Shown piece by piece: positions 5,187 through 28,757 of a stretch of DNA of 64,000 nt (positions within the stretch are counted from its first letter, which is position 1; each line of letters begins with the position of its first letter). The notes beneath the pieces are model-generated. The model was not told where the DNA came from. It was given only the letters and a program-made list of their open reading frames with translations, and made no database searches. The DNA is from a virus: IMG/VR virus record IMGVR_UViG_3300027779_000019, positions 13,680 to 77,679 of that record; one strand, written 5' to 3'. Both the position numbers and the translations under genes were made by a program.

Positions 5187-5552
5187 ATGGAGTCATATAC
5201 TAATACAGACATGGCGGTTGTCGATAGTTGCGCCCAATCGTATGATATAAAAATCGGAGATAAGAAAATATTCGATGACGCATACGCGAAGTGGGCCAAG
5301 AAAAACGGCATCCAAGCAGGTTGGAACAACCAGCAACACAACTATAAGTCTGAATCTACCCTAGAGAATGAGGGGCGCGAATCAGCTAAACAAAACAAAG
5401 CCGATAGACAAGAGTTGGTGAAGTTAAGTAAAGCAGCCAGCAAAGCAGCCAGCAAAGCAAAAGCAGAGATAAATAGGGTAAACAAAGCGAAAAAGAAAAT
5501 TAGAGATGCAAAAAAAAGAGATATTAAACCAAAGAGCGAAAAGGCTAGTTGA
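5187..5552 (+). CDS. hypothetical Lys-rich protein
   Basis: own promoter (TTGACA 5149, TATACT 5172); basic C-terminus with an in-frame KAAS tandem repeat. Confidence 0.6.
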   Translation: MESYTNTDMAVVDSCAQSYDIKIGDKKIFDDAYAKWAKKNGIQAGWNNQQHNYKSESTLENEGRESAKQNKADRQELVKLSKAASKAASKAKAEINRVNKAKKKIRDAKKRDIKPKSEKAS

Positions 5553-5826
5553 GCTTTGTTCAAAGTTTCACTTCGCTAAACGGCCAACTGGTACGCAACG
5601 AACCTTCCTTGAGAACTACGATGTATCCTTCGATGGACGAGTTGACAAAATCAAGGTTAAGAGGCAGAAGCGCGGCTTAACAAAAGTTATATTTAATTCA
5701 GTTTGGTTGGGCGACCAATCCAATAAGGAAGGCATATTTAACCCTTCCGACACAATAGACGCTTTACTTCTAGCTATCAAACAAGCAGACTCCGCTTAAT
5801 TGCGGAGTTTTTTCTTTATAGTATCA

Positions 5827-6359: not shown

Positions 6360-7310
6360 GATTAGGCATTTGGAACATAGACTACCAGTCATTATGGATT
6401 TAATTACATTAAAATATATGAAAGGCAGAAAAAGTGGGAGATGTTATAGTTTGGTTAGGTATTTTTGTTTTTTGTTATTCTCTCTATTCTTCTTTGGCAG
6501 AAGCTAGGGAGATAGACAAGAATAACGACGATTGGTAAGATTCTTTAGGTTTCTTGCTATTTCATGCTATTGCCTACCCATCTTCCCCCCTCTTCCCCCC
6601 ACACAATAAACCAAACACAAACAAAGCAATATAAACAAGTACATTGTTTCTTATCTTCTTATTAGAATGATATTATAGGTAGTGTCGAATTTATTTCTAT
6701 AAATAAGGGTTTTCATTTGATTATTTAGAATAACTAATCTATTGAGGTTTTTTGCAATTACTACTATCTACTATACTGTATTTGTGAATGCGAATGATCA
6801 AAATATAAAGAAGAAAAATACAAACAAAGTAAGCCGCCAAATAAATTCATTTAAATATATCAAATACATTCCAAATATTTTCATTTAAATATATGGCAGC
6901 TTTCATTTATTTTCATTTATTTATATGGGGCTATTTGTGAGCGACTTTGCTCGAAATATAGTAGTGCCAAAAATGAACAAGTCGGCCCGAAATAACCTAC
7001 AGCTAGATATACAAAGTACATACAACAAAATACAAGCCTGATATATTTTCATTTAAATATATAAGGGGCCAAAAACTAACGATATTTAGCCAAATAACCC
7101 GCCTAGAAGCATCTATTTTTTCAACTGTTAAAACAATGACATTTTAGCAGGAAGATAACTATGTTAAACTGTCAGTTGATTGATAGATTTACATACTTCT
7201 TATTTAGAATTATTCTAATTACAATCTCAATACAATAACACGATAATATAAGTAGATTCACCGCCGATATATTTTCATTTAAATATTTAAGAGAGTTGAA
7301 ATTCATTTAA
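6360..7310. repeat. AT-rich non-coding region with iterated TTCATTTAAATAT; candidate replication origin
   Basis: no ORF of 60 aa or more; exact 13-mers at 6846, 6880, 7048 and 7274; exact 21-mer at 7040 and 7266. Confidence 0.5.
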
Positions 7311-7636: not shown

Positions 7637-8611
7637 ATGGCTACCACCACACTAATCGAAAAATTGTTCCCGAATATCGTCGGGCAGACAGCGGCAAAAG
7701 GAAAAATGCGATTCTATATCGAAGGGCATTCCGCAAGCAATATGATCCCCCACATGATGCTTGTCGCACCCAAAGGGTGCGGCAAGACCACTATGGCAGA
7801 GGCATTCGGACGGAACCTAGTTCAGAAAGGCGAGATCAAGCAGAAGCCTTGGTTGAGCATAAACTGTTCTTCGATTAAGAACTTGGAGCAATTCTTCGAC
7901 CAGATAGTAATGCCTCACTTGATGGATAAAGATATAACATTTATGATGGATGAATGTCACATGATTCCCAATGATGTTCAAAACGCGCTTCTGACGGTTC
8001 TTAACCCCAACCCATCGCATACCAATACGTTTTCTTTTGGTGAGTTCGATTGGAATGTTGATTTTAAGCGCATTTCTTTTATCTTCGCAACTACCGAATC
8101 GCAGAAGATGGCATCACCGCTAATGGACAGATGCGAGCGCATCGACTTGGAGGAATACTCTAACGAGGAACTTGCAGAAATTGTCAAACTTAATACGAAG
8201 GTTGTATTTAAGCAGAATATCCTTGACGATATATCAACTACGCTTCGCGGCAATGCGCGGGGAGCGCAGAAAATGGCAACCAACATCGACATATACTGTA
8301 AGAAGAATGTTAAGAAGGTCTTCCAAAGGAATGATTGGAAACGGTTAACGAACGCTTTGGACATTATGCCGTTGGGACTGCACCGCATGGAGATGAGGGT
8401 TCTCCGTACCCTGTCAGAGCAACCGTTCACTAGGTTGGGCAGTCTGGCGGCGAAGTTAGGGATGAACAGGACGGTCATCCAGCGCGACTTCGAGATGTTC
8501 CTTGCGAAGAATGGGCTTTTCGACGTTGATCCGCTTGGCCGACAACTGACCAAGAAGGGGCTGGAACTTCTTTCCACCTACGACAAGAACAAAGACAAGA
8601 CTACTAAATGA
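7637..8611 (+). CDS. ruvB: Holliday junction branch-migration ATPase RuvB-like
   Basis: Walker A PKGCGKTT, Walker B DECH, ATT, PLMDR and RGNAR motifs; RuvB-type C-terminal winged helix (LAAKLG...E.FL...G......GR.LT..G). Confidence 0.85.
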   Translation: MATTTLIEKLFPNIVGQTAAKGKMRFYIEGHSASNMIPHMMLVAPKGCGKTTMAEAFGRNLVQKGEIKQKPWLSINCSSIKNLEQFFDQIVMPHLMDKDITFMMDECHMIPNDVQNALLTVLNPNPSHTNTFSFGEFDWNVDFKRISFIFATTESQKMASPLMDRCERIDLEEYSNEELAEIVKLNTKVVFKQNILDDISTTLRGNARGAQKMATNIDIYCKKNVKKVFQRNDWKRLTNALDIMPLGLHRMEMRVLRTLSEQPFTRLGSLAAKLGMNRTVIQRDFEMFLAKNGLFDVDPLGRQLTKKGLELLSTYDKNKDKTTK

Positions 8612-8781
8612 AAATAGACGACCATTGGTTGAGGCCGCGAACAAAAGCGGGAACAGAGGAAATGCGGAAAAGGCTCAACGCTATGAGAGAGCTACTGCAA
8701 GCAGCAGCCAAGACCGACAGTATAGAAACAAAAATAGTTAAAAAAGTATTTGATGAATATTTTACATTTGATTGGGAATGA
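8608..8781 (+). CDS. hypothetical 57-aa protein
   Basis: ATGA overlap with the ruvB stop; below the track size cutoff. Confidence 0.5.
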   Translation: MKIDDHWLRPRTKAGTEEMRKRLNAMRELLQAAAKTDSIETKIVKKVFDEYFTFDWE

Positions 8782-8832
8782 ATAAAAAAATAAAGTATTG
8801 ACAAAGCGATAACTTTGTGCTATATTAGTTTG

Positions 8833-9002
8833 TTGGTTGTTTGGTAGACCAAGAATACACGTAAGCTCACGCGTATGGTGTCGGGAGAGACTCTCGAACA
8901 AAGGTTATTTTTTAAATGACCTGCATGAAACAAAGCTGAGCTTACGCGACTCTCTCTCATAACTAGAGTCGGAGACCCCCGCAATGGGGGTCTCTTTTTT
9001 TT
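8833..9002 (+). ncRNA. candidate trans-acting sRNA with a loop antisense to early mRNA 5' ends
   Basis: promoter TTGACA 8798 + 17 bp + TATATT 8821; stem 8860-8869/8937-8946; hairpin GACTCT[CTCTCATAACT]AGAGTC; terminator GAGACCCCC/GGGGGTCTC+T8; only tiny ORFs. Confidence 0.75.
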
Positions 9003-9157
9003 ATACATATGCGATCGCCAAATAATCAAATAACACCAAATAATGAATGATATATTATCAAATAATTATATAGAAGGCAAATGAAAAATATACGAAATAA
9101 TGCCAAATAAGAATACAAATAATATAAATAACTATAATTGCAATAAACGCTATAAAT

Positions 9158-9274
9158 ACAACTCATTGATTACCAAGGACTTACATAGGCCGCCCTCCTA
9201 AGTCGCTGACTACCAAGGACTTACGGCCGCCGGGTAGCCCGGGGTGCGTAAACCGTTGATGCTCAATAGTTTAC
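9158..9274. repeat. double-palindrome element 1 (plus an extra box at 9158-9184)
   Basis: 27-bp boxes at 9198-9224 and 9248-9274, consensus GTAAGTCnTTGnnnnnCAAnGACTTAC, GC-rich spacer. Confidence 0.9.
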
Positions 9275-9335: not shown

Positions 9336-9608
9336 ATGCGTTACATTAACAGCAACTGCACCTATACCGAAAACCACGTTGAGGGAACCTATACGTTCAC
9401 AGGGCCGTGTCGTGTCACCGGAGACGACTATAGCGTCACTATACCGGGGCATGAACTTTGGGATCTAAACCAAGGTAAGCCGATCATGTGCTTGAAATCT
9501 CTTGATGCGAGCGACAGAGAGTTCGTCTTGAGTGGAACAAGCCCCAAAGGGTGGGAGAAGCTTTTTGGTGGAGTAGAAGAGATCGCGAAGTCATTAGTCG
9601 CGGAGTAG
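9336..9608 (+). CDS. hypothetical protein (leaderless)
   Basis: ATG 6 nt after the -10 box of promoter 9301; REF..SG.SP.GW motif. Confidence 0.65.
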   Translation: MRYINSNCTYTENHVEGTYTFTGPCRVTGDDYSVTIPGHELWDLNQGKPIMCLKSLDASDREFVLSGTSPKGWEKLFGGVEEIAKSLVAE

Positions 9609-9672: not shown

Positions 9673-9721
9673 TATTTAGTGCTTGACTTTTGAGTAAAGA
9701 TGTGATACCATATTTGAAGTT

Positions 9722-10276
9722 ATGAGGGAAAGAGAAGAGCCAAAAGGATTTATTAGCTGGGCAGACGCAGGGCCGCGTAAGGTTGTCGACGGATGTGAGG
9801 TAGCGCCGGATCGCGTGAAGGTTTACTTCAATCTTCAAAAAGACTGCCTTTCGGTAATTGATGCGGAGACTGGACTGCTATACTGTCATGCTCATCGGGT
9901 TGAGTTGCGTAATGCCAAGTTTCGGGTACAGCCAGCAGGTCGGGAGCGAGTCATTCGGGAGAAGCGTAAGAACGTCCACGCTTACATTATCGGTGACTGC
10001 CATGACATTGGTGACGTTTCCAAGGAACGTTTTCGCTTGGTTGATAATGAGTTGTTCGAGAAGTACAGCATCTGTGATTGCGGTGACAAACCATACGACT
10101 ACTGTGAGGAGTGCGTACCGGAATCAAGTGATGAGTTTCGCGGAGGGTGTTACAATCCTTATAAGTATAAGACTTTCGTAGACGATGTAGAGAAGACGCC
10201 GATCCTCAAGTCAGACAGGGTGATCGTCAGAGACAAGACGGCGATAGGGTCACATTATAATATATTTTATGTTTGA
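9722..10276 (+). CDS. conserved phage protein
   Basis: VY.NL...C.SV...F.V...GRERV.REKRKNVHA motif; own promoter at 9683. Confidence 0.7.
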   Translation: MREREEPKGFISWADAGPRKVVDGCEVAPDRVKVYFNLQKDCLSVIDAETGLLYCHAHRVELRNAKFRVQPAGRERVIREKRKNVHAYIIGDCHDIGDVSKERFRLVDNELFEKYSICDCGDKPYDYCEECVPESSDEFRGGCYNPYKYKTFVDDVEKTPILKSDRVIVRDKTAIGSHYNIFYV

Positions 10277-12194: not shown

Positions 12195-12270
12195 CATTTA
12201 AGCAAAAGTATGATAGACTATATTCTTTGAGTGAGAGAACTATATAACAAAAAACTAAACTAAAAAACAT

Positions 12271-13173
12271 ATGGCAAGAACAACTAGACCCACATCAGAC
12301 AACTACTCCTTCGGCGTACAGCACACGGCCCTCAAAGCCTCTGACGGTACACCTTCGGGATGGTTTGGAATACAGCGCACCGACAACAACAAAGTTATAG
12401 GTGTTAGCTCGGAAAAGTACGGTATCGTCAAAAACGATGACGTTATAGGAGCCGTCAAGGAGGCGTTAGGAGAGCATCAATCGACTCTTGGAGAATACGA
12501 GGAGGAAATCAGCTGCGTGCGTGATGGTTCGCGTATGTACGGAGGTTTTACCTTTAAGGACTACAAACGTGACCACAAGGACGGTGGTCAGTACGAAAAA
12601 GGCGATTACATGGGAATGAAGTTGACGGTCAATAACTCCTATGACCGCACTTGTCGGGTGTCTCTATCGGTTGGAATGCTTCGCTTGGTTTGCACCAACG
12701 GCATGACCTCGCTAGAGCAGGAACAGTCTATGACTCGCAAGCATTCTCTGCAAGTGGACATTTCTTTCATTCGTGACGCAATCTCTGGCTGCATTGAAAA
12801 GTTCGAGTCATCGGTTGACCATCTTGGTAGACTGTCAAAGGTTTCCTTGACACAAGACCAAGGCACGAACATATTGAAGAACCTTACCGATAAGAAGATT
12901 ATATCGGAAGTCGTTCGCGCTGGTGTCGCTAGTATTTGGGCGAATCCATCCTACGATCAGGACAAACCTCGAAACTTGTATACCTTGTATAACGCATCGA
13001 CGCAGTACCTCACGCATGATCCCAACCCTTCTGCTCGGCTTGAGTATTCCAGCAGGGTGGACAAGGTGTTGCTGGGCAAGTTCAGCGAAATGAGTTCGAT
13101 CCCCAGCAAGTTCAACCTGTTATCGGCCAAGCCGAAAGAAAAGAAGCAGGAACAAATTGTCGTTGCTGTCTAA
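12271..13173 (+). CDS. DUF932-family phage/plasmid protein
   Basis: R.D...V.GV.S.KY..V.N, NSYD and R.VCTNG motifs. Confidence 0.8.
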   Translation: MARTTRPTSDNYSFGVQHTALKASDGTPSGWFGIQRTDNNKVIGVSSEKYGIVKNDDVIGAVKEALGEHQSTLGEYEEEISCVRDGSRMYGGFTFKDYKRDHKDGGQYEKGDYMGMKLTVNNSYDRTCRVSLSVGMLRLVCTNGMTSLEQEQSMTRKHSLQVDISFIRDAISGCIEKFESSVDHLGRLSKVSLTQDQGTNILKNLTDKKIISEVVRAGVASIWANPSYDQDKPRNLYTLYNASTQYLTHDPNPSARLEYSSRVDKVLLGKFSEMSSIPSKFNLLSAKPKEKKQEQIVVAV

Positions 13174-13580: not shown

Positions 13581-13684
13581 GGCCAAGAGAAAATTACAAA
13601 AAAACTATAATAGGATAATCAGAGGGCCTAAAAAGTTATTCTTTTTGCTTGACTATTAGCCGAAGCTGTGCTATACTTTCGGGA

Positions 13685-14329: not shown

Positions 14330-14432
14330 AAGCTTGACTTTATTGGGAATTGTGATATACTCCTTTGTGAATGGAGATGCCATTACTACTGATACTAGCG
14401 GTCATTGTAACCTACCTACAACAAAAAACAGA

Positions 14433-14666
14433 ATGAGAAAACTAATGCAAAAACTAAAGCGGTTAATGAGGCCGCGCTTCACCTTGGTTTACCGTAAAAG
14501 AGACGGTGCGAGTGGAATCTACGAGATTTCCAGACCAAGAACAGACAACACCTTTGGCAACATCGGAGAGGGAGAGGATGAGGTTGGCTTTCGCGCCTAT
14601 TGTTACAATCGCGAAAACTGGCGTTCTTTCCGTCACGATGGAGTCATTTCTATGGTGAAAAATTAG
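14433..14666 (+). CDS. small WYL-like domain protein
   Basis: AYC..R..WRSFR.D motif. Confidence 0.5.
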   Translation: MRKLMQKLKRLMRPRFTLVYRKRDGASGIYEISRPRTDNTFGNIGEGEDEVGFRAYCYNRENWRSFRHDGVISMVKN

Positions 14667-15162: not shown

Positions 15163-15274
15163 TTTTCTTTTTCCTTGAATAAGAGCCTTTGCCCTTCTCG
15201 GTTTTATGTGTTCGTGTTCCCGTATTAAAAGGAACCACCTTTCTAGGTTTAGAAATTTTCTTCTTCTCTCTCAT
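15149..15274 (-). CDS. ArfA-like ribosome-rescue peptide (41 aa)
   Basis: MREKKKISKPRKVVPFNTGTRTHKTEKGKGSYSRKKKNAKQ contains the KGKGSY.RK ArfA signature; leaderless behind promoter TTGACA 15309. Confidence 0.7.
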   Translation of the reverse strand: MREKKKISKPRKVVPFNTGTRTHKTEKGKGSYSRKKKNAKQ

Positions 15275-15908: not shown

Positions 15909-16202
15909 TCACAGCATCTCACAGCCTCCGCCGTAATCCTCATCCGTGCCCCAGCCCGCACTAGCGAGCGCATCCCCGTCCGCTTCCGCGTCCGAGTTGA
16001 AACCGTCCCAATCCTCGCCTGCGGCGTCATCGATAGACCACACCACCTCGCGAGAATTGTCGGTATGATGCTCGATAACGTCCTCGCCCACCTGATCGGC
16101 CAACCTAATGGCCGCGTTCAATGCTGTGTGATCGGCATCACCCACGTTCTGCGTGAAACTCTGCACTACACCCTCTCCATCAACAACTGAGTATTTCCTC
16201 AT
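15909..16202 (-). CDS. acidic phage protein
   Basis: DGDALASAGWGTDEDYG C-terminal motif; own promoter at 16240. Confidence 0.65.
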   Translation of the reverse strand: MRKYSVVDGEGVVQSFTQNVGDADHTALNAAIRLADQVGEDVIEHHTDNSREVVWSIDDAAGEDWDGFNSDAEADGDALASAGWGTDEDYGGGCEML

Positions 16203-16338
16203 AACAGAAAACAGTATACCACAAAATGGAGAAATGTCAATCAATAATGTCACTTTTTTAAAAAAGATATTTTAACTATTTATCGTACTTGGCATGAAAA
16301 CCCTCCTAAGGTATCGCTTTTTAGGGTAGTTGGGGTGC

Positions 16339-17856: not shown

Positions 17857-18099
17857 TTAAGCTAAAAGGGTGACAGTTGCGTTAGAGTTAAGAGCGTGGA
17901 CAGTCGGTTCTTTTGGTTCGTCATCGAATCCGCAATGATTGCCAAGCGCGTGTTTTATTATAGCCCAAAGACTTGGGACTGGCCCGAACTGCTCAAGTGT
18001 TTTGTCGCCTCGCTTAACGGTAAGAGTCCAAGCGACTTTGCCGCTTTCTTCGCATTCGAAGATGTCTACTGTTTTTGTCGGATGGTTTATATCTCTCAT
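17857..18099 (-). CDS. hypothetical protein (MRD-start family)
   Basis: promoter TTGACT 18138; predicted mRNA start AGTTATGAGAGAT. Confidence 0.6.
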   Translation of the reverse strand: MRDINHPTKTVDIFECEESGKVAWTLTVKRGDKTLEQFGPVPSLWAIIKHALGNHCGFDDEPKEPTVHALNSNATVTLLA

Positions 18100-18134
18100 A
18101 ACTTGTAATATCGTATCAGATTTTAGGGCAAAAG

Positions 18135-18431
18135 TCAAGCACTATCTTTGCAAATTTCACATTCGCATTCTTGTGCTTTTATAGCTTCTTCGTTCCAGTC
18201 ATCGCAAAATGTGGTAAGTTCCTTAACTTCCTTTTTCGTTTTCAGTCCACGCTTGAATTGTTCCCAAGTGGGGCGTTGCGCTTCGGGAATTGCTTCCCAG
18301 CCTTTCATCAATTCGGCACGACGAGCCTGTTCCTCCGCCAACCACGGCAGAACGCTATTTGCTGACATATCGCCACCCTTTTCCGCTCTCCTGCGGATTC
18401 CTTCTGTTATTGCTCTTGAATTATCTCTCAT
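18135..18431 (-). CDS. hypothetical protein (MRD-start family)
   Basis: promoter TTGCTA/TATACT; predicted mRNA start AGTTATGAGAGAT. Confidence 0.6.
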   Translation of the reverse strand: MRDNSRAITEGIRRRAEKGGDMSANSVLPWLAEEQARRAELMKGWEAIPEAQRPTWEQFKRGLKTKKEVKELTTFCDDWNEEAIKAQECECEICKDSA

Positions 18432-18486
18432 AACTGGGAATAGTATAACACAATCTCGCAAAATAGCAAGCTTTAATGTCACTTTT

Positions 18487-18714
18487 TTAAGCCTCGATTC
18501 CCGCTTTGTCTTCGATCCATTCGAGATCTTCGCTATTCTCGATTTCGGTTAGCCTGTTCTGGACGTCGGCGAGTTTCTCTTCCCAATGCTCTATGCGGAT
18601 TTGAATCGCTTCCTTCCCAATGAGGTTAGTCTGCGCTAATATTTGCAACGCTCCACGCACTTCGGCGATAGCAATGCCTTCGTTCCTCAAACTCTTCTGT
18701 GTCGTATCTCTCAT
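18487..18714 (-). CDS. hypothetical protein (MRD-start family)
   Basis: promoter TTGACT 18752; predicted mRNA start AGTTATGAGAGAT. Confidence 0.6.
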   Translation of the reverse strand: MRDTTQKSLRNEGIAIAEVRGALQILAQTNLIGKEAIQIRIEHWEEKLADVQNRLTEIENSEDLEWIEDKAGIEA

Positions 18715-18864
18715 AACTGCAAAGAGCATAGCACAATCAGCCAAAAAGTCAAGAGAAAAGAATCACTTTTTTAACAAATATGAATAAAAAAAAGAACAAA
18801 TATTAGGACAAATATGCTTGACAAGTTCATCAAAAACCGAAAAAAATGACTTTTTAAAACTACC

Positions 18865-19642: not shown

Positions 19643-19843
19643 TTATTCGCACTCGTGGCACTGGTAGTTTTCCAAGCCGTGATCCCATTGGCCAACTTCT
19701 TCTAGGCTGATCACTACTTCCGCACCGCATCCGCAGCACACAACCTCATGTCCATCCACGGTGTTGTTGTCGTCGTTCCGATCCATCTCGTTGTTCATTT
19801 CGTTATTCATCTTATTCATTTCGTTGCTCTTTCTCTCACTCAC
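19643..19843 (-). CDS. small Cys-rich protein
   Basis: promoter TTGACT 19879; GTGAGTGAGAGA start; two CxxC-like pairs. Confidence 0.5.
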   Translation of the reverse strand: MSERKSNEMNKMNNEMNNEMDRNDDNNTVDGHEVVCCGCGAEVVISLEEVGQWDHGLENYQCHECE

Positions 19844-19882
19844 TTGTTATATCGTATCACATTTAAGGTTGAAAGTCAACAC

Positions 19883-20071
19883 TTATTTTGGATTATTTCC
19901 ACAATATCCAGCCAGTTGATTGGCTTGGTGCTTGGGGTCATTGTTCACCGTGTAGGTGTTACCGTTCAAGGTGAAGGTGTCACGCTTGGCCTCACGGCGG
20001 CGACGTTGCTCCAAGTGTCTGCGGATCTCTGATATTGTCATTTGATTGTTCATTGTCTTTCTCTCACTCAC
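19883..20071 (-). CDS. hypothetical protein
   Basis: promoter TTGACT 20107; GTGAGTGAGAGA at the predicted transcript start. Confidence 0.5.
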   Translation of the reverse strand: MSERKTMNNQMTISEIRRHLEQRRRREAKRDTFTLNGNTYTVNNDPKHQANQLAGYCGNNPK

Positions 20072-20157
20072 TGGGTATAGTCTAACACGATAGGCCCGAA
20101 AAGTCAAGCGGTTTCTTTGTTTTATTTCATTTTTATTTCGTGTGATTCTTTACCTAG

Positions 20158-20311: not shown

Positions 20312-20401
20312 GTCATTATAATACGACACGAAAAGAAAGTTATTTTTTTTACATTTAGGGGTTGACTTTTGAGGTAAGATGTGATATCATATTCCTAGTG
20401 A

Positions 20402-20587
20402 GTGAGGGGAGACCCTCCAACAGAAAGACAGATTATGGAAGATAAGAAGATTAAGACAGTTAAGGTCAAAGGGCCTTGGGTAGATGGAGTGCAGACAGTC
20501 AAGGAGATCAGCCTAGACGAGTGGACAAGCTATACGCCACTAAACAGGCGAGTACGGGGAGAATGGTTCCGAGTAGTTAAGTGGTAA
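20402..20587 (+). CDS. hypothetical protein
   Basis: promoter TTGACT 20362 / TATCAT; start uncertain (GTG 20402 or ATG 20435). Confidence 0.5.
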   Translation: MRGDPPTERQIMEDKKIKTVKVKGPWVDGVQTVKEISLDEWTSYTPLNRRVRGEWFRVVKW

Positions 20588-20630
20588 AAAGGGCTTGACT
20601 TTATAGGTAAAGTGTGATATCATTTATCCA

Positions 20631-20903
20631 GTGAGTGAGAGAAACAGTAAGATGAAAAACAAAATAAAATTCCTAAACGTAGTGTTCAACGTCAAGCGCA
20701 ACGCCGCTTACCAAGGCAACCACGAGCTTGCCAGAACCGATAGAATCCACACGACCTTCCCGCTCGGCACAACCGAGGAGGAAATGATCAGCGAGTTTCA
20801 CTCGGAGCTAGTCAACATCGACATTAACGGTAAGACTTGGCTAAAGGGTGAAATGATTCAGGTCACCAGCATTGATAATTGTTTCGAAGATTCAACTAAC
20901 TAA
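20631..20903 (+). CDS. hypothetical protein
   Basis: promoter TTGACT 20595 / TATCAT; GTGAGTGAGAGA start. Confidence 0.55.
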   Translation: MSERNSKMKNKIKFLNVVFNVKRNAAYQGNHELARTDRIHTTFPLGTTEEEMISEFHSELVNIDINGKTWLKGEMIQVTSIDNCFEDSTN

Positions 20904-26829: not shown

Positions 26830-27810
26830 CTACCATTGATGATTCCAGTACCATCCCCATGAATCTCTTCTGCCGTATCGAACATAAGAGTCTCGCGCCT
26901 CTTCTGGTCCCGCATTAGTTTTGCGCATTTGTCTTGATAGCCCATGAACCCAAGGAAACCATGTATATTTCTGGGTCTTGAAGTTTTCTATTTTGGTGGT
27001 GGACCTATCTTTTAACCATTTTACATCTACGCTGCCATATGCCCTTCTTATCCCGTACTTGAAATTAGAACCGTCAATGTAATATTTACCTTGCGCAGTT
27101 TTTGTCCGCTCGTCCAGCCATCTTTTGGTTTCGACATGACCATCCGCGAAAGCTAGCGCTGTTCCATCAATGTGGTACTTACCCGGAACGTCCATGTCGT
27201 ATACTTTATGCGTAGGTCCTCCTTCATTCATTACTACCCGAAAGCAGCCAGCATTTATAAATTCAAATGGCATTTCTATAAAAGTAAAAATATTAGAAGG
27301 TTTTTCTATGTCGGCTTGTTTATGGTATATTTTCCATTCTTTATCATTTTCTACTGGCCAGCCAGCCCACCCTCCTACGTGGATATTCATGCTATAGCTC
27401 CTATGACGCGGGAAGATCTGCCTTAACTCACCGGCCTTGTTTGTTATTCTGAGCATGTCCTTGTCTGCTGGGCATTTAAATACTCCAACAGATTTGCCCA
27501 CGTAAGGAAAAAGGGGAGTACTTTCTAGAAATTGTGCTTTATTTAGATATCGAGAAAGATTTAAACTTCCCGGTGCCCATGTATACTTCGAACATTTTTC
27601 ATACTTCCAAGAACTTGAATATAATATTTTGTCACCGTGGTCATCACTAAATATTGTGTGAGCCATTTGTAATTGTTTCTGATTATTTATGCAGGCTACT
27701 CTTTGTGCGATTGATTTCGCTTTGTTGATCGCAGGGAGAAGAAGGGCAACTAAGAGCGCAATGATCCCAATAACAACGAGCAACTCGACTAAAGTAAATC
27801 CTTTTTTCAT
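26830..27810 (-). CDS. prepilin-type N-methylation / H-X9-DG domain protein
   Basis: [15 protein letters not shown]-terminus, C.NN.KQ, F.CP.D, RSYSMN, H.DG..LAFADGH. Confidence 0.9.
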
Positions 27811-28757
27811 CAATAAGGGTTCCAAGTTGGATGGCTACCCCAACTGTCATTCCAATACCAACCCCACGAAGCGGACACCTTACCATCTATAGTGCGGTGA
27901 TTCCCGTCCCTATTGTATCTACCTATACCTCCCATAACTCCATACCATCTATGATTGTTGGGGTCTGGGACAATTGCTCTTGCCCTTAGCCATGCAAGAT
28001 CGCGATTATTTGGACTTACTATTTTATCCGTATTAGTCGTTGGATCTGTCGCATCAGATGATATATTTATTGTGTCTTGTTCAAGCCATCGTTTAAATTC
28101 GACGTGCGCGTCCACGAAAGAAACAACAGAGCCGTTGTTGTGATAAACCCCGGGCCAGTCTTGTGAGAAAAAGCTCTCACCACCTTTAAGTGTTGGCGCT
28201 ACTCTAAAGTTTCCAGCATTAATAGATTGAGGTGGCATTTCAATAAAAGTAAATAACAGGCTCGAATTATTTACATCGCCATATTCGTGATGAACTTTGT
28301 ACTGGCTATCTGATAACCAAGGCCACCCCGACCAACCACCGACAAAGAGATTTACGCTATAGGAACGTGGCCTATTTATAGTCTTCGCATTAACCGTAAC
28401 AGTGGATCTATCTCCGGGGCAATGATATATGCCCATACCCGCATAAGGCTTTAAGGGAGAAAAGAAGAGAGGCCTATCGGTTTGACCCCATGTACCGTTA
28501 CCACTCATACTGTCAGCAACCCATGCCCACATACCGGTCGGCTCTCCAGCCCAAGCTGAGGCGTAAGGGAACCTATTTTCGTGATCCCCTGCGAACTCCG
28601 AGTAAGCGAGATTAAGTTGGCGTTGGTTATTTATGCACGCGGCTCGCCACCCTGTCTGTTTAGCGGAACTTAATGAAGGGAGTAAAAGGGCCGCTAATAT
28701 CGCAATGATGGCTATCACCACCAGAAGCTCAATTAAAGTAAACCCTTTTCCTTTCAT
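27810..28757 (-). CDS. prepilin-type N-methylation / H-X9-DG domain protein
   Basis: [42 protein letters not shown]....FVDAH. Confidence 0.9.

Follow-up and report, generated by a model that had tools for sequence, protein, structure and literature searches.

Several kinds of base-pairing small RNA (sRNA) have been described that resemble, in one respect or another, the element considered here. It lies in a 64,000-nucleotide (nt) stretch of viral DNA (hereafter the window; positions 13,680 to 77,679 of IMG/VR record IMGVR_UViG_3300027779_000019) and comprises a predicted sRNA gene, one hairpin loop of which is complementary to a short sequence, the tag, with which several early messenger RNAs (mRNAs) of the same phage are predicted to start; the complementary sequence in the loop is called the anti-tag below. 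The bacterial sRNAs with a terminator-proximal seed (the Hfq/ProQ type, including CpxQ, DapZ, MicL and SdhX, which derive from 3' untranslated regions, 3'UTRs) likewise have a promoter of their own or a 3'-end origin, carry a conserved single-stranded seed 5' of a GC-rich, U-tailed terminator, and act at several translation starts. At the sequence level the phage RNA has these attributes: a discrete promoter/terminator unit, a structured non-coding body and an accessible, conserved seed. It differs in that it would address the phage's own mRNAs, would pair with their first transcribed bases and AUG rather than with a Shine-Dalgarno sequence, and would have its target set defined by one shared 5' tag.

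Recognition sequences displayed in a loop with the YUNR motif (CUCA in the phage RNA) are known from CopA/CopT, RNAI/RNAII, Sok/hok and IS10 RNA-OUT, and the pairing of RNA-OUT with the 5' end of RNA-IN parallels the loop-to-5'-end interaction predicted here. Those antisense RNAs, however, are encoded in cis and fully complementary to a single target over a long stretch, whereas the phage RNA is trans-encoded and presents 12 nt to several. Pairing RNAs with their own promoter and terminator are also carried by phages, among them lambda OOP, P22 sar, lambda PreS, DicF, StxS and AgvB/AsxR; OOP and sar are each antisense in cis to one gene, an arrangement not seen here, where no conserved gene lies opposite 8832-9002, and PreS, DicF and StxS have host mRNA targets. 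The phage T4 translational repressor RegA and endoribonuclease RegB offer a functional analogy, a single factor reading a short motif at many early initiation regions, but they are proteins reading AU-rich or GGAG motifs, and the recogniser proposed here is an RNA. A literature search covering the motifs and the control of leaderless mRNAs by sRNAs returned no precedent for one sRNA aimed at a phage's own early-mRNA family via a common 5' tag. Base-pairing sRNAs being a known category, what would be new in this case is the targets and the 5' tag that they share.

The RNA gene and its exposed loop

A sigma70-type promoter and an intrinsic terminator, the latter an 11-bp stem followed by T8, delimit the RNA as the initial annotation had proposed, and both are conserved (Table 1). 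Transcript ends, here and throughout, are +1 positions derived from promoter geometry. Searching metagenomes with the adjacent AAA/RuvB-like protein yielded three relatives (L100, L101 and L102; 85-89% protein identity), in which the promoter is kept (TTGACA-17-TATATT in L100, TTGACA-17-TATAAG in L101/L102) although the upstream gene differs. The interval between the AAA/RuvB-like gene and the sRNA holds an open reading frame (ORF) of 57 amino acids (aa) in the window (8608-8781) and an unrelated ORF of ~220 aa in L100 (10950-11607) and L102 (2560-3215). Since the neighbouring ORF differs while the sRNA unit is intact, genes have been replaced, cassette-like, around a fixed RNA gene.

The predicted RNA has a minimum free energy of -66 kcal/mol (z = -6.1 against shuffled sequences) and is conserved in the three relatives, in line with its earlier description as structured. 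In each of the three homologous versions the plus-strand fold of the locus is ~10 kcal/mol more stable than the minus-strand one, and the homologues score 161-204 bits with the covariance model of the RNA (R1). Its body is 75-80% identical in the relatives, where indels of 3, 4, 5 and 9 nt occur and the helices are preserved by compensatory changes and G.U pairs. The earlier statement that the locus has no real ORF needs qualification: a 41-aa ORF with a TTG start on the plus strand and a 46-aa ORF with an ATG start (MRES...) on the minus strand are present in the window, and the indels of the relatives destroy both, the minus-strand frame shrinking to 7 codons in L101. Because frame-breaking indels and compensatory pair changes occur together in so similar a body, we regard the RNA as non-coding. 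Neither a gene nor a promoter is conserved on the minus strand under 8832-9002; the weak minus-strand promoter seen at 9080 is absent from L100 and L102. On this comparative evidence, ~8832-9002 is a structured, conserved plus-strand non-coding RNA gene.

Does the RNA belong to a described family? With Rfam 15 at gathering thresholds only a tRNA-Cys passes within the window, and the RNA is matched neither here nor in the relatives. At permissive thresholds the best match reaches 25.1 bits against a gathering score of 44.2, and the sub-threshold matches to DUF3800-I, Phe_leader, isrD and RsmY are driven by the terminator; DUF3800-I (RF02969), which scores 25 bits where the gathering score is 44, aligns to little more than the terminator, and the core motif is not represented.

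The last hairpin before the terminator has the GACUCU/AGAGUC stem that had been read at 8948-8970. From GCGACUCU onward, over ~60 nt, this hairpin and the terminator are identical in the relatives except for one AAA insertion in L101/L102, just 3' of the anti-tag; the hairpin is invariant in L100, and the anti-tag is intact in all of these relatives; tags are kept in L100 and L102. Contigs from four further marine metagenome runs (Logan) have SNPs at 8853-8937 and from 9010, and no variant at 8938-8994. In the predicted ensemble the anti-tag has a mean unpaired probability of 0.92, against 0.37 for the whole RNA. The loop is, by these comparisons, the most constrained part of the RNA. When IMG/VR was scanned for exact copies of the loop hairpin and of CCTGCATGAAACAAAGC, only chance matches in unrelated contigs (L085, L103 and L159) came up.

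Tagged starts of early messages

The window belongs to a 77.7-kb viral record of an uncultured marine phage, ~49% complete according to CheckV. Its terminase TerL has at most 26% identity to those of cultured phages, blastn found no close relative in the phage GenBank set, a search of IMG/VR with the AAA/RuvB-like neighbour gene found none either, and ~80 viral contigs are related to it. The early region (~1-21 kb) is dense with TG-extended sigma70-type promoters, and its internal genes have no Shine-Dalgarno sequences. Many promoter-proximal early genes begin 6-11 nt past the -10 box and are therefore probably leaderless or near-leaderless.

The sequence AGTTATGAGAGA occurs exactly at three gene starts on the minus strand, as had been reported, and its reverse complement is the anti-tag; each of the three begins 6 nt past a -10 hexamer. 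By our own arithmetic, 64 kb should contain a given 12-mer 0.004 times on each strand. With up to one mismatch allowed, five tag or anti-tag sites are found against 0.31 expected, a number reached in none of 100 shuffles. The fourth start, of an L5-gp82-like gene, matches over 12 nt with one G.U pair, and its tag is kept in L100 and L102. The weaker matches listed in the initial annotation also hold: 10 nt at 15274, 8 nt at 16205 and 19630, and 7 nt for the AGTGAGTGAGAGA class.

Each tag starts 6 nt past the -10 hexamer of a TG-extended promoter, so the tagged messages would be near-leaderless. Downstream of the -10 box, information content is 0.05-0.13 bits at positions 4-6 and 0.42 bits at position 7; conservation thus begins at the predicted +1, and this favours an element acting at the RNA level. 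Codon 2 of tagged genes is AGA, AGG, AGC and the like and never CGN: arginine is encoded by AGR in 15 of 15 cases, against a genome-wide AGR share of 0.65. The nucleotides rather than the amino acids therefore appear constrained, as the earlier suggestion of selection on the RNA sequence implied.

Two tag classes, AGUUAUG(AGAGA) and AGUGAGUGAGAGA, recur clade-wide at the same promoter distance (in L100, L102, G005, G007, G008, L106, L124, L133 and L151), whereas the more distant G002 and G003 have plain leaderless AUGs in their place. Across the clade the second class is no less widespread than the AUG-containing one (23 versus 28 promoters in the sequences examined); its downstream ATG stands at variable distance, with a GTG in frame in some cases. 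An anti-tag for it (UCUCUCACUCACU) was found in none of G000 (the window phage), G005, G007, G008, L106 and L124; the lone 9-mer match, in G008, falls within a small ORF that is itself conserved. In one relative (L154 of G008, 9443-9469) the tag is tandemly duplicated, AGTTATGAGAGAaagAGTTATGAGAGA, after a single promoter.

When every 20-mer of the 77.7-kb genome is ranked as a predicted duplex partner of the anti-tag, the first four places go to the four tags (-17.1 to -17.8 kcal/mol), and these top-ranked sites are four 5' ends, 0.7-9.8 kb from the sRNA. Cofolding of full-length sequences favours the tagged 5' ends, with a net gain of -9 to -13 kcal/mol; untagged leaderless ones gain -2 to -4 kcal/mol. 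In Caulobacter, translation of leaderless mRNAs drops exponentially as opening of the start codon costs more energy, and each added leader base lowers it (PMC8459731). Since occlusion of the AUG curbs leaderless initiation there, a duplex of about -17 kcal/mol should inhibit strongly; by the leader-base penalty, the conserved 4-nt AGUU leader would be costly and needs another rationale.

Core copies and anti-tag/terminator modules in related phages

The covariance model detects weaker copies of the central domain in G005, G008 and L106 (two in each). In an alignment of nine copies from four phage lineages, which was fitted to the covariance model, 90% of cells are paired, against 37-49% with slid partners, and 40 of 55 pairs have changes on both sides; none of 500 shuffles reaches the observed values. 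Conserved single-stranded elements of the copies are AUGGUG, the GAGA loop, ACARGG and UGAAAC. The core is, as far as these alignments go, an undescribed structured-RNA family with paralogues in the relatives and no Rfam match. Past the AAA gene of G005 and G008, the syntenic RNA has the core and lacks the anti-tag. Because such paralogues are without the anti-tag hairpin, the RNA of the window is a fusion of a clade-wide structured module with an anti-tag/terminator module.

A 4-codon mini-ORF (AUG AAA CAA AGC stop; 8925-8939) lies within the invariant CCUGCAUGAAACAAAGCU, and its stop is TGA, TAA and TAG in the three homologues; as distant core copies have no AUG there, it is probably a by-product of helix covariation. 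In G005 and G008 the core RNA comes after the gene of a conserved small protein, MGMRNHTY.LEV.RQTGGDLK... (L082 of G005, 2510-2690; G008, minus strand, 16430-16235), and at the same position the window has only the sRNA promoter.

The anti-tag, for its part, recurs in other settings. Taking as a terminator any structure of -20 kcal/mol or stronger within 55 nt downstream, 8 of the 13 non-tag occurrences of CUCAUAAC lie directly 5' of a strong terminator hairpin, compared with 1.2% of 2,400 random positions. The eight cases represent at least four independent loci in unrelated genomic contexts (Table 1). The copies are always on the strand of the terminator, 3-11 nt before the hairpin, and in most of these loci the motif is predicted to be single-stranded, in the other lineages as an unstructured stretch rather than a loop. 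Matches to the local tags reach 11-12 nt in G005 and G007. Mini-ORFs opposite the anti-tag sites are unconserved when read directly. G002 and G003, which have no tags, also have no terminator hairpin after any occurrence of CUCATAAC, and in a looser scan for CTCATAA 2 of 33 satisfy the terminator definition, about the rate at random positions. This co-occurrence of tag and anti-tag/terminator is the strongest argument that the complementarity is functional. A model in cis, in which the anti-tag would pair with a downstream tag in read-through RNA, was discarded: G005 has no tagged sequence downstream on that strand.

The 3'UTR following a small MKKF...WKRFR gene is long, structured and conserved in the relatives, with a single-stranded stretch containing CUCAUAAC followed by a long terminator hairpin; the orthologue in the window (14334-14666) has a short terminator only. 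Operon ends in the clade also carry dispersed ~77-bp palindromic elements (CCAAGGACTTACG, a GC-rich core, then CGTAA), usually just past the terminator. Directly past the sRNA terminator, 9003-9160 is AT-rich, with at least six CAAATAA-type repeats, and could be an iteron or origin-like region; CAAATA repeats also trail the syntenic RNA in G005, G008, G003 and G002 (L082-L084). Elsewhere in the window, two adjacent prepilin-type proteins (26830-28757, minus strand) have the N_methyl motif and a weak, sub-threshold DUF1559 match, a weak hint of a host among the Planctomycetota/PVC group.

Table 1. Positions of the features discussed, given in the window unless a related sequence is named.
Feature	Position	Strand	Remarks
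Sigma70-type promoter TTGACA-17-TGcTATATT (TG extension)	8798..8826	+	best sigma70 match in 7-22 kb, 11/12
Predicted ~170-nt non-coding RNA	8832..9002	+	5' end placed 6-7 nt past the -10 box
5' hairpin UUGGUUGUUUGGUAGACCAA	8833..8852	+	kept in L100 and L101
Multi-helix core: two closing helices, AUGGUG, GAGA-loop hairpin, ACAAAGG, second hairpin, CAUGAAAC	8860..8946	+	
Anti-tag hairpin GACUCU-CUCUCAUAACU-AGAGUC, 6-bp stem, 11-nt loop	8948..8970	+	direct reading and fold
Anti-tag UCUCUCAUAACU	8953..8964	+	exact complement of AGUUAUGAGAGA
Intrinsic terminator GGAGACCCCC-GCAAU-GGGGGUCUC + U8, 11-bp GC-rich stem	8971..9002	+	invariant in relatives
Tag AGUUAUGAGAGA, predicted +1..+12 of 75-aa early ORF	18707..18718	-	promoter 18752-18725; predicted duplex -17.6 kcal/mol; no Pfam family
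Tag AGUUAUGAGAGA of 98-aa early ORF	18424..18435	-	promoter 18469-18442
Tag AGUUAUGAGAGA of 80-aa early ORF	18092..18103	-	promoter 18138-18110
Tag AGUUAUGAGGGA of 184-aa L5-gp82-like gene	9718..9729	+	12 nt with one G.U; promoter 9683-9711
Leaderless AUGAGAGAGA start	15265..15274	-	10-nt match, uses two stem bases of the sRNA hairpin
Tag variant UGUUAUGAGG	16198..16205	-	8-nt match
Second tag class AGUGAGUGAGAGA(AA)	20060..20072; 19832-19844; 20630-20642	-; -; +	7-nt match only
Second tag class, variants	20397-20409; 12226-12238	+; +	
Core copies, L097 (G005)	5422-5617; 8645-8817		
Core copies, L154 (G008)	14407-14548; 16079-16248	+; -	
Core copies, L106	8312-8490; 10167-10253	+; -	
Anti-tag/terminator, G000-type sRNA			window phage
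Anti-tag/terminator, ~290-nt 3'UTR			G005, L106/L124, G008
Anti-tag/terminator past unrelated gene, G007			UCUCUCAUAACC, 12-nt match to +2..+13 of local tags
Anti-tag/terminator past DUF932 gene, G007			
3'UTR of MKKF...WKRFR gene, G005 (L097)	~10527-10240	-	
3'UTR of MKKF...WKRFR gene, L106	~12400-12090	-	
3'UTR of MKKF...WKRFR gene, L124	~6860-7170	+	
3'UTR of MKKF...WKRFR gene, G008 (L154)	~12620-12900		
Palindromic elements	9158-9260, ~11863, 13505, 15419, 16339, 18865, 20197		also in G005, G007, G008, L106; class conserved clade-wide

Proposed repression of tagged messages and its rivals

What could such an RNA do? The reading that we favour, and hold to be somewhat on the probable side of even, is that a trans-acting antisense RNA represses the class-1, near-leaderless early mRNAs by occluding their 5' end and AUG. 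The RNA would be built in four parts, a 5' hairpin, the multi-helix core, a short hairpin with the open UCUCUCAUAACU loop and the terminator, and the loop would pair in trans with positions +1..+12 of the messages (AGUUAUGAGAGA, with the AUG at +5..+7). The predicted targets are the three perfect matches, all small ORFan genes, the L5-gp82-like gene with its one G.U, and possibly two or three partial matches of 8-10 nt. Translation of a near-leaderless message requires that its 5'-proximal AUG be free, so the duplex should keep ribosomes from loading, and as the stable RNA accumulates, translation of the small early proteins would be shut down or dosed. In this role it would be the RNA equivalent of shut-off proteins such as T4 RegA. 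The comparisons show conservation and structure of the RNA, accessibility of its loop, an exact and conserved complementarity and recurrence of the module; the transcript ends, pairing in vivo and the direction of its effect are inferred. The initial annotation had gone further and assigned one trans-acting RNA to a whole early regulon. The conserved accessible loop, the kept tags and the recurrence of the anti-tag substantially strengthen its trans-acting part; the regulon is overstated, since class 2 has a 7-nt match and no dedicated anti-tag was found for it in the genomes searched, and ~4-7 class-1 mRNAs are the likely extent.

Several observations weigh against repression. Class-2 tags are conserved without an anti-tag, so tag conservation does not need pairing with the sRNA, and such pairing cannot account for it generally. 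The loop and the tags are both invariant, and the anti-tag flanks elsewhere match local tags over 9-12 nt without a clean compensatory pattern. A full 12-bp helix in an 11-nt loop would be under topological strain as long as the 6-bp stem stays closed. Judged by its promoter, the sRNA would be expressed as early as its targets, for which a timer or dosing logic may be speculatively invoked. Finally, the core is shared with paralogues in G005, G008 and L106 that have no anti-tag hairpin, and the RNA probably has a second function or partner.

That last point leads to an alternative that we consider unlikely but substantial: the core would be the main functional part, as a protein platform or a ligand- or ribosome-binding element, and the anti-tag would serve another partner, such as a host RNA, or be a minor lineage-specific addition. 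The strongly covarying core copies devoid of the anti-tag hairpin, and their conserved AUGGUG, GAGA loop, ACARGG and UGAAAC, are what such a function would predict; left unexplained are the loop's standing as the part with the highest conservation and accessibility, its identity with the complement of the phage's own 5' tags, and the presence of the same anti-tag beside terminators in unrelated RNAs. A protective or activating effect, in which the 5'-end duplex shields tagged mRNAs from decay of the RppH/RNase E or RNase J type or holds them in reserve, draws on the same complementarity, conservation and recurrence as repression, and co-expression from early-type promoters suits a partner better than a shut-off switch. 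It nonetheless seems quite unlikely, since the duplex covers the AUG and start-codon occlusion strongly inhibits leaderless initiation (PMC8459731). Were the 12-mer instead a DNA operator for a regulator of early promoters, its copy in the sRNA gene would be merely an inverted operator; promoter starts are a frequent place for repressor binding, and orientation matters little for DNA sites. This is improbable in view of a conservation that starts at the predicted +1 and does not span the promoter, of a non-palindromic motif, and of inverted copies that are never near promoters but always on the terminator strand, mostly in RNA predicted to be single-stranded.

The remaining explanations have very little probability. 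The anticodon loop of the E. coli initiator transfer RNA (tRNA), tRNA-fMet, is CUCAUAA, the very sequence at the centre of the phage loop, with CUCA as a U-turn-like YUNR motif, and the initial annotation had accordingly raised the possibility of an initiator-tRNA mimic or anticodon-nuclease decoy; a decoy of the ribosomal P site would be a further version. We find this hardly credible: the loop has 11 nt (14 in L101/L102) rather than 7, the GACUCU/AGAGUC stem is without the run of three G-C pairs by which initiators are identified, only the tRNA-Cys at 9599 is detected by ARAGORN and the Rfam tRNA model, CUCAUAA is the unavoidable complement of UUAUGAG, and other lineages show an unstructured stretch. 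Just as implausible is a decoy of the 6S kind, trapping RNA polymerase or templating short product RNAs. The loop is indeed an RNA copy of the template strand of tagged promoters from +1 to +12, and ~170 nt is a 6S-like size, but the fold is branched rather than a long irregular hairpin with a central bubble, no 6S family matches at E-values up to 10, and in other lineages the anti-tag is a segment of a 3'UTR. Least credible of all is a small protein encoded at the locus. Both frames are open in the window, and the minus-strand ORF opens from a tag-like ATG with the AGTTATGAGAGA motif, yet the indels described above break both frames, and the minus strand has no conserved promoter.

A broader reading extends repression by the anti-tag to the clade, and we place it a little short of even. 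A portable anti-tag plus terminator module, carried by a stand-alone sRNA in this phage and by various mRNA 3'UTRs in its relatives, would in these marine phages seize the uncapped 5' end and AUG of (A)GUUAUGAG-tagged near-leaderless early mRNAs, amounting to RNA-only, tag-addressed global control of early translation. Whatever the mechanism, the comparative evidence points to a structured-RNA family, so far undescribed, among abundant uncultured marine phages and to a highly non-random association of anti-tag and terminator. The regulatory logic of the broader reading has not been described for phages or for leaderless mRNAs. If repression by the sRNA is correct, a phage sRNA would govern a family of the phage's own early genes via a common 5' address tag, and leaderless or near-leaderless mRNAs, which have no Shine-Dalgarno sequence to hide, would be controllable by pairing at the extreme 5' end. 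The 12-nt tag/anti-tag pair would then also offer a simple, portable means for synthetic control of leaderless expression.

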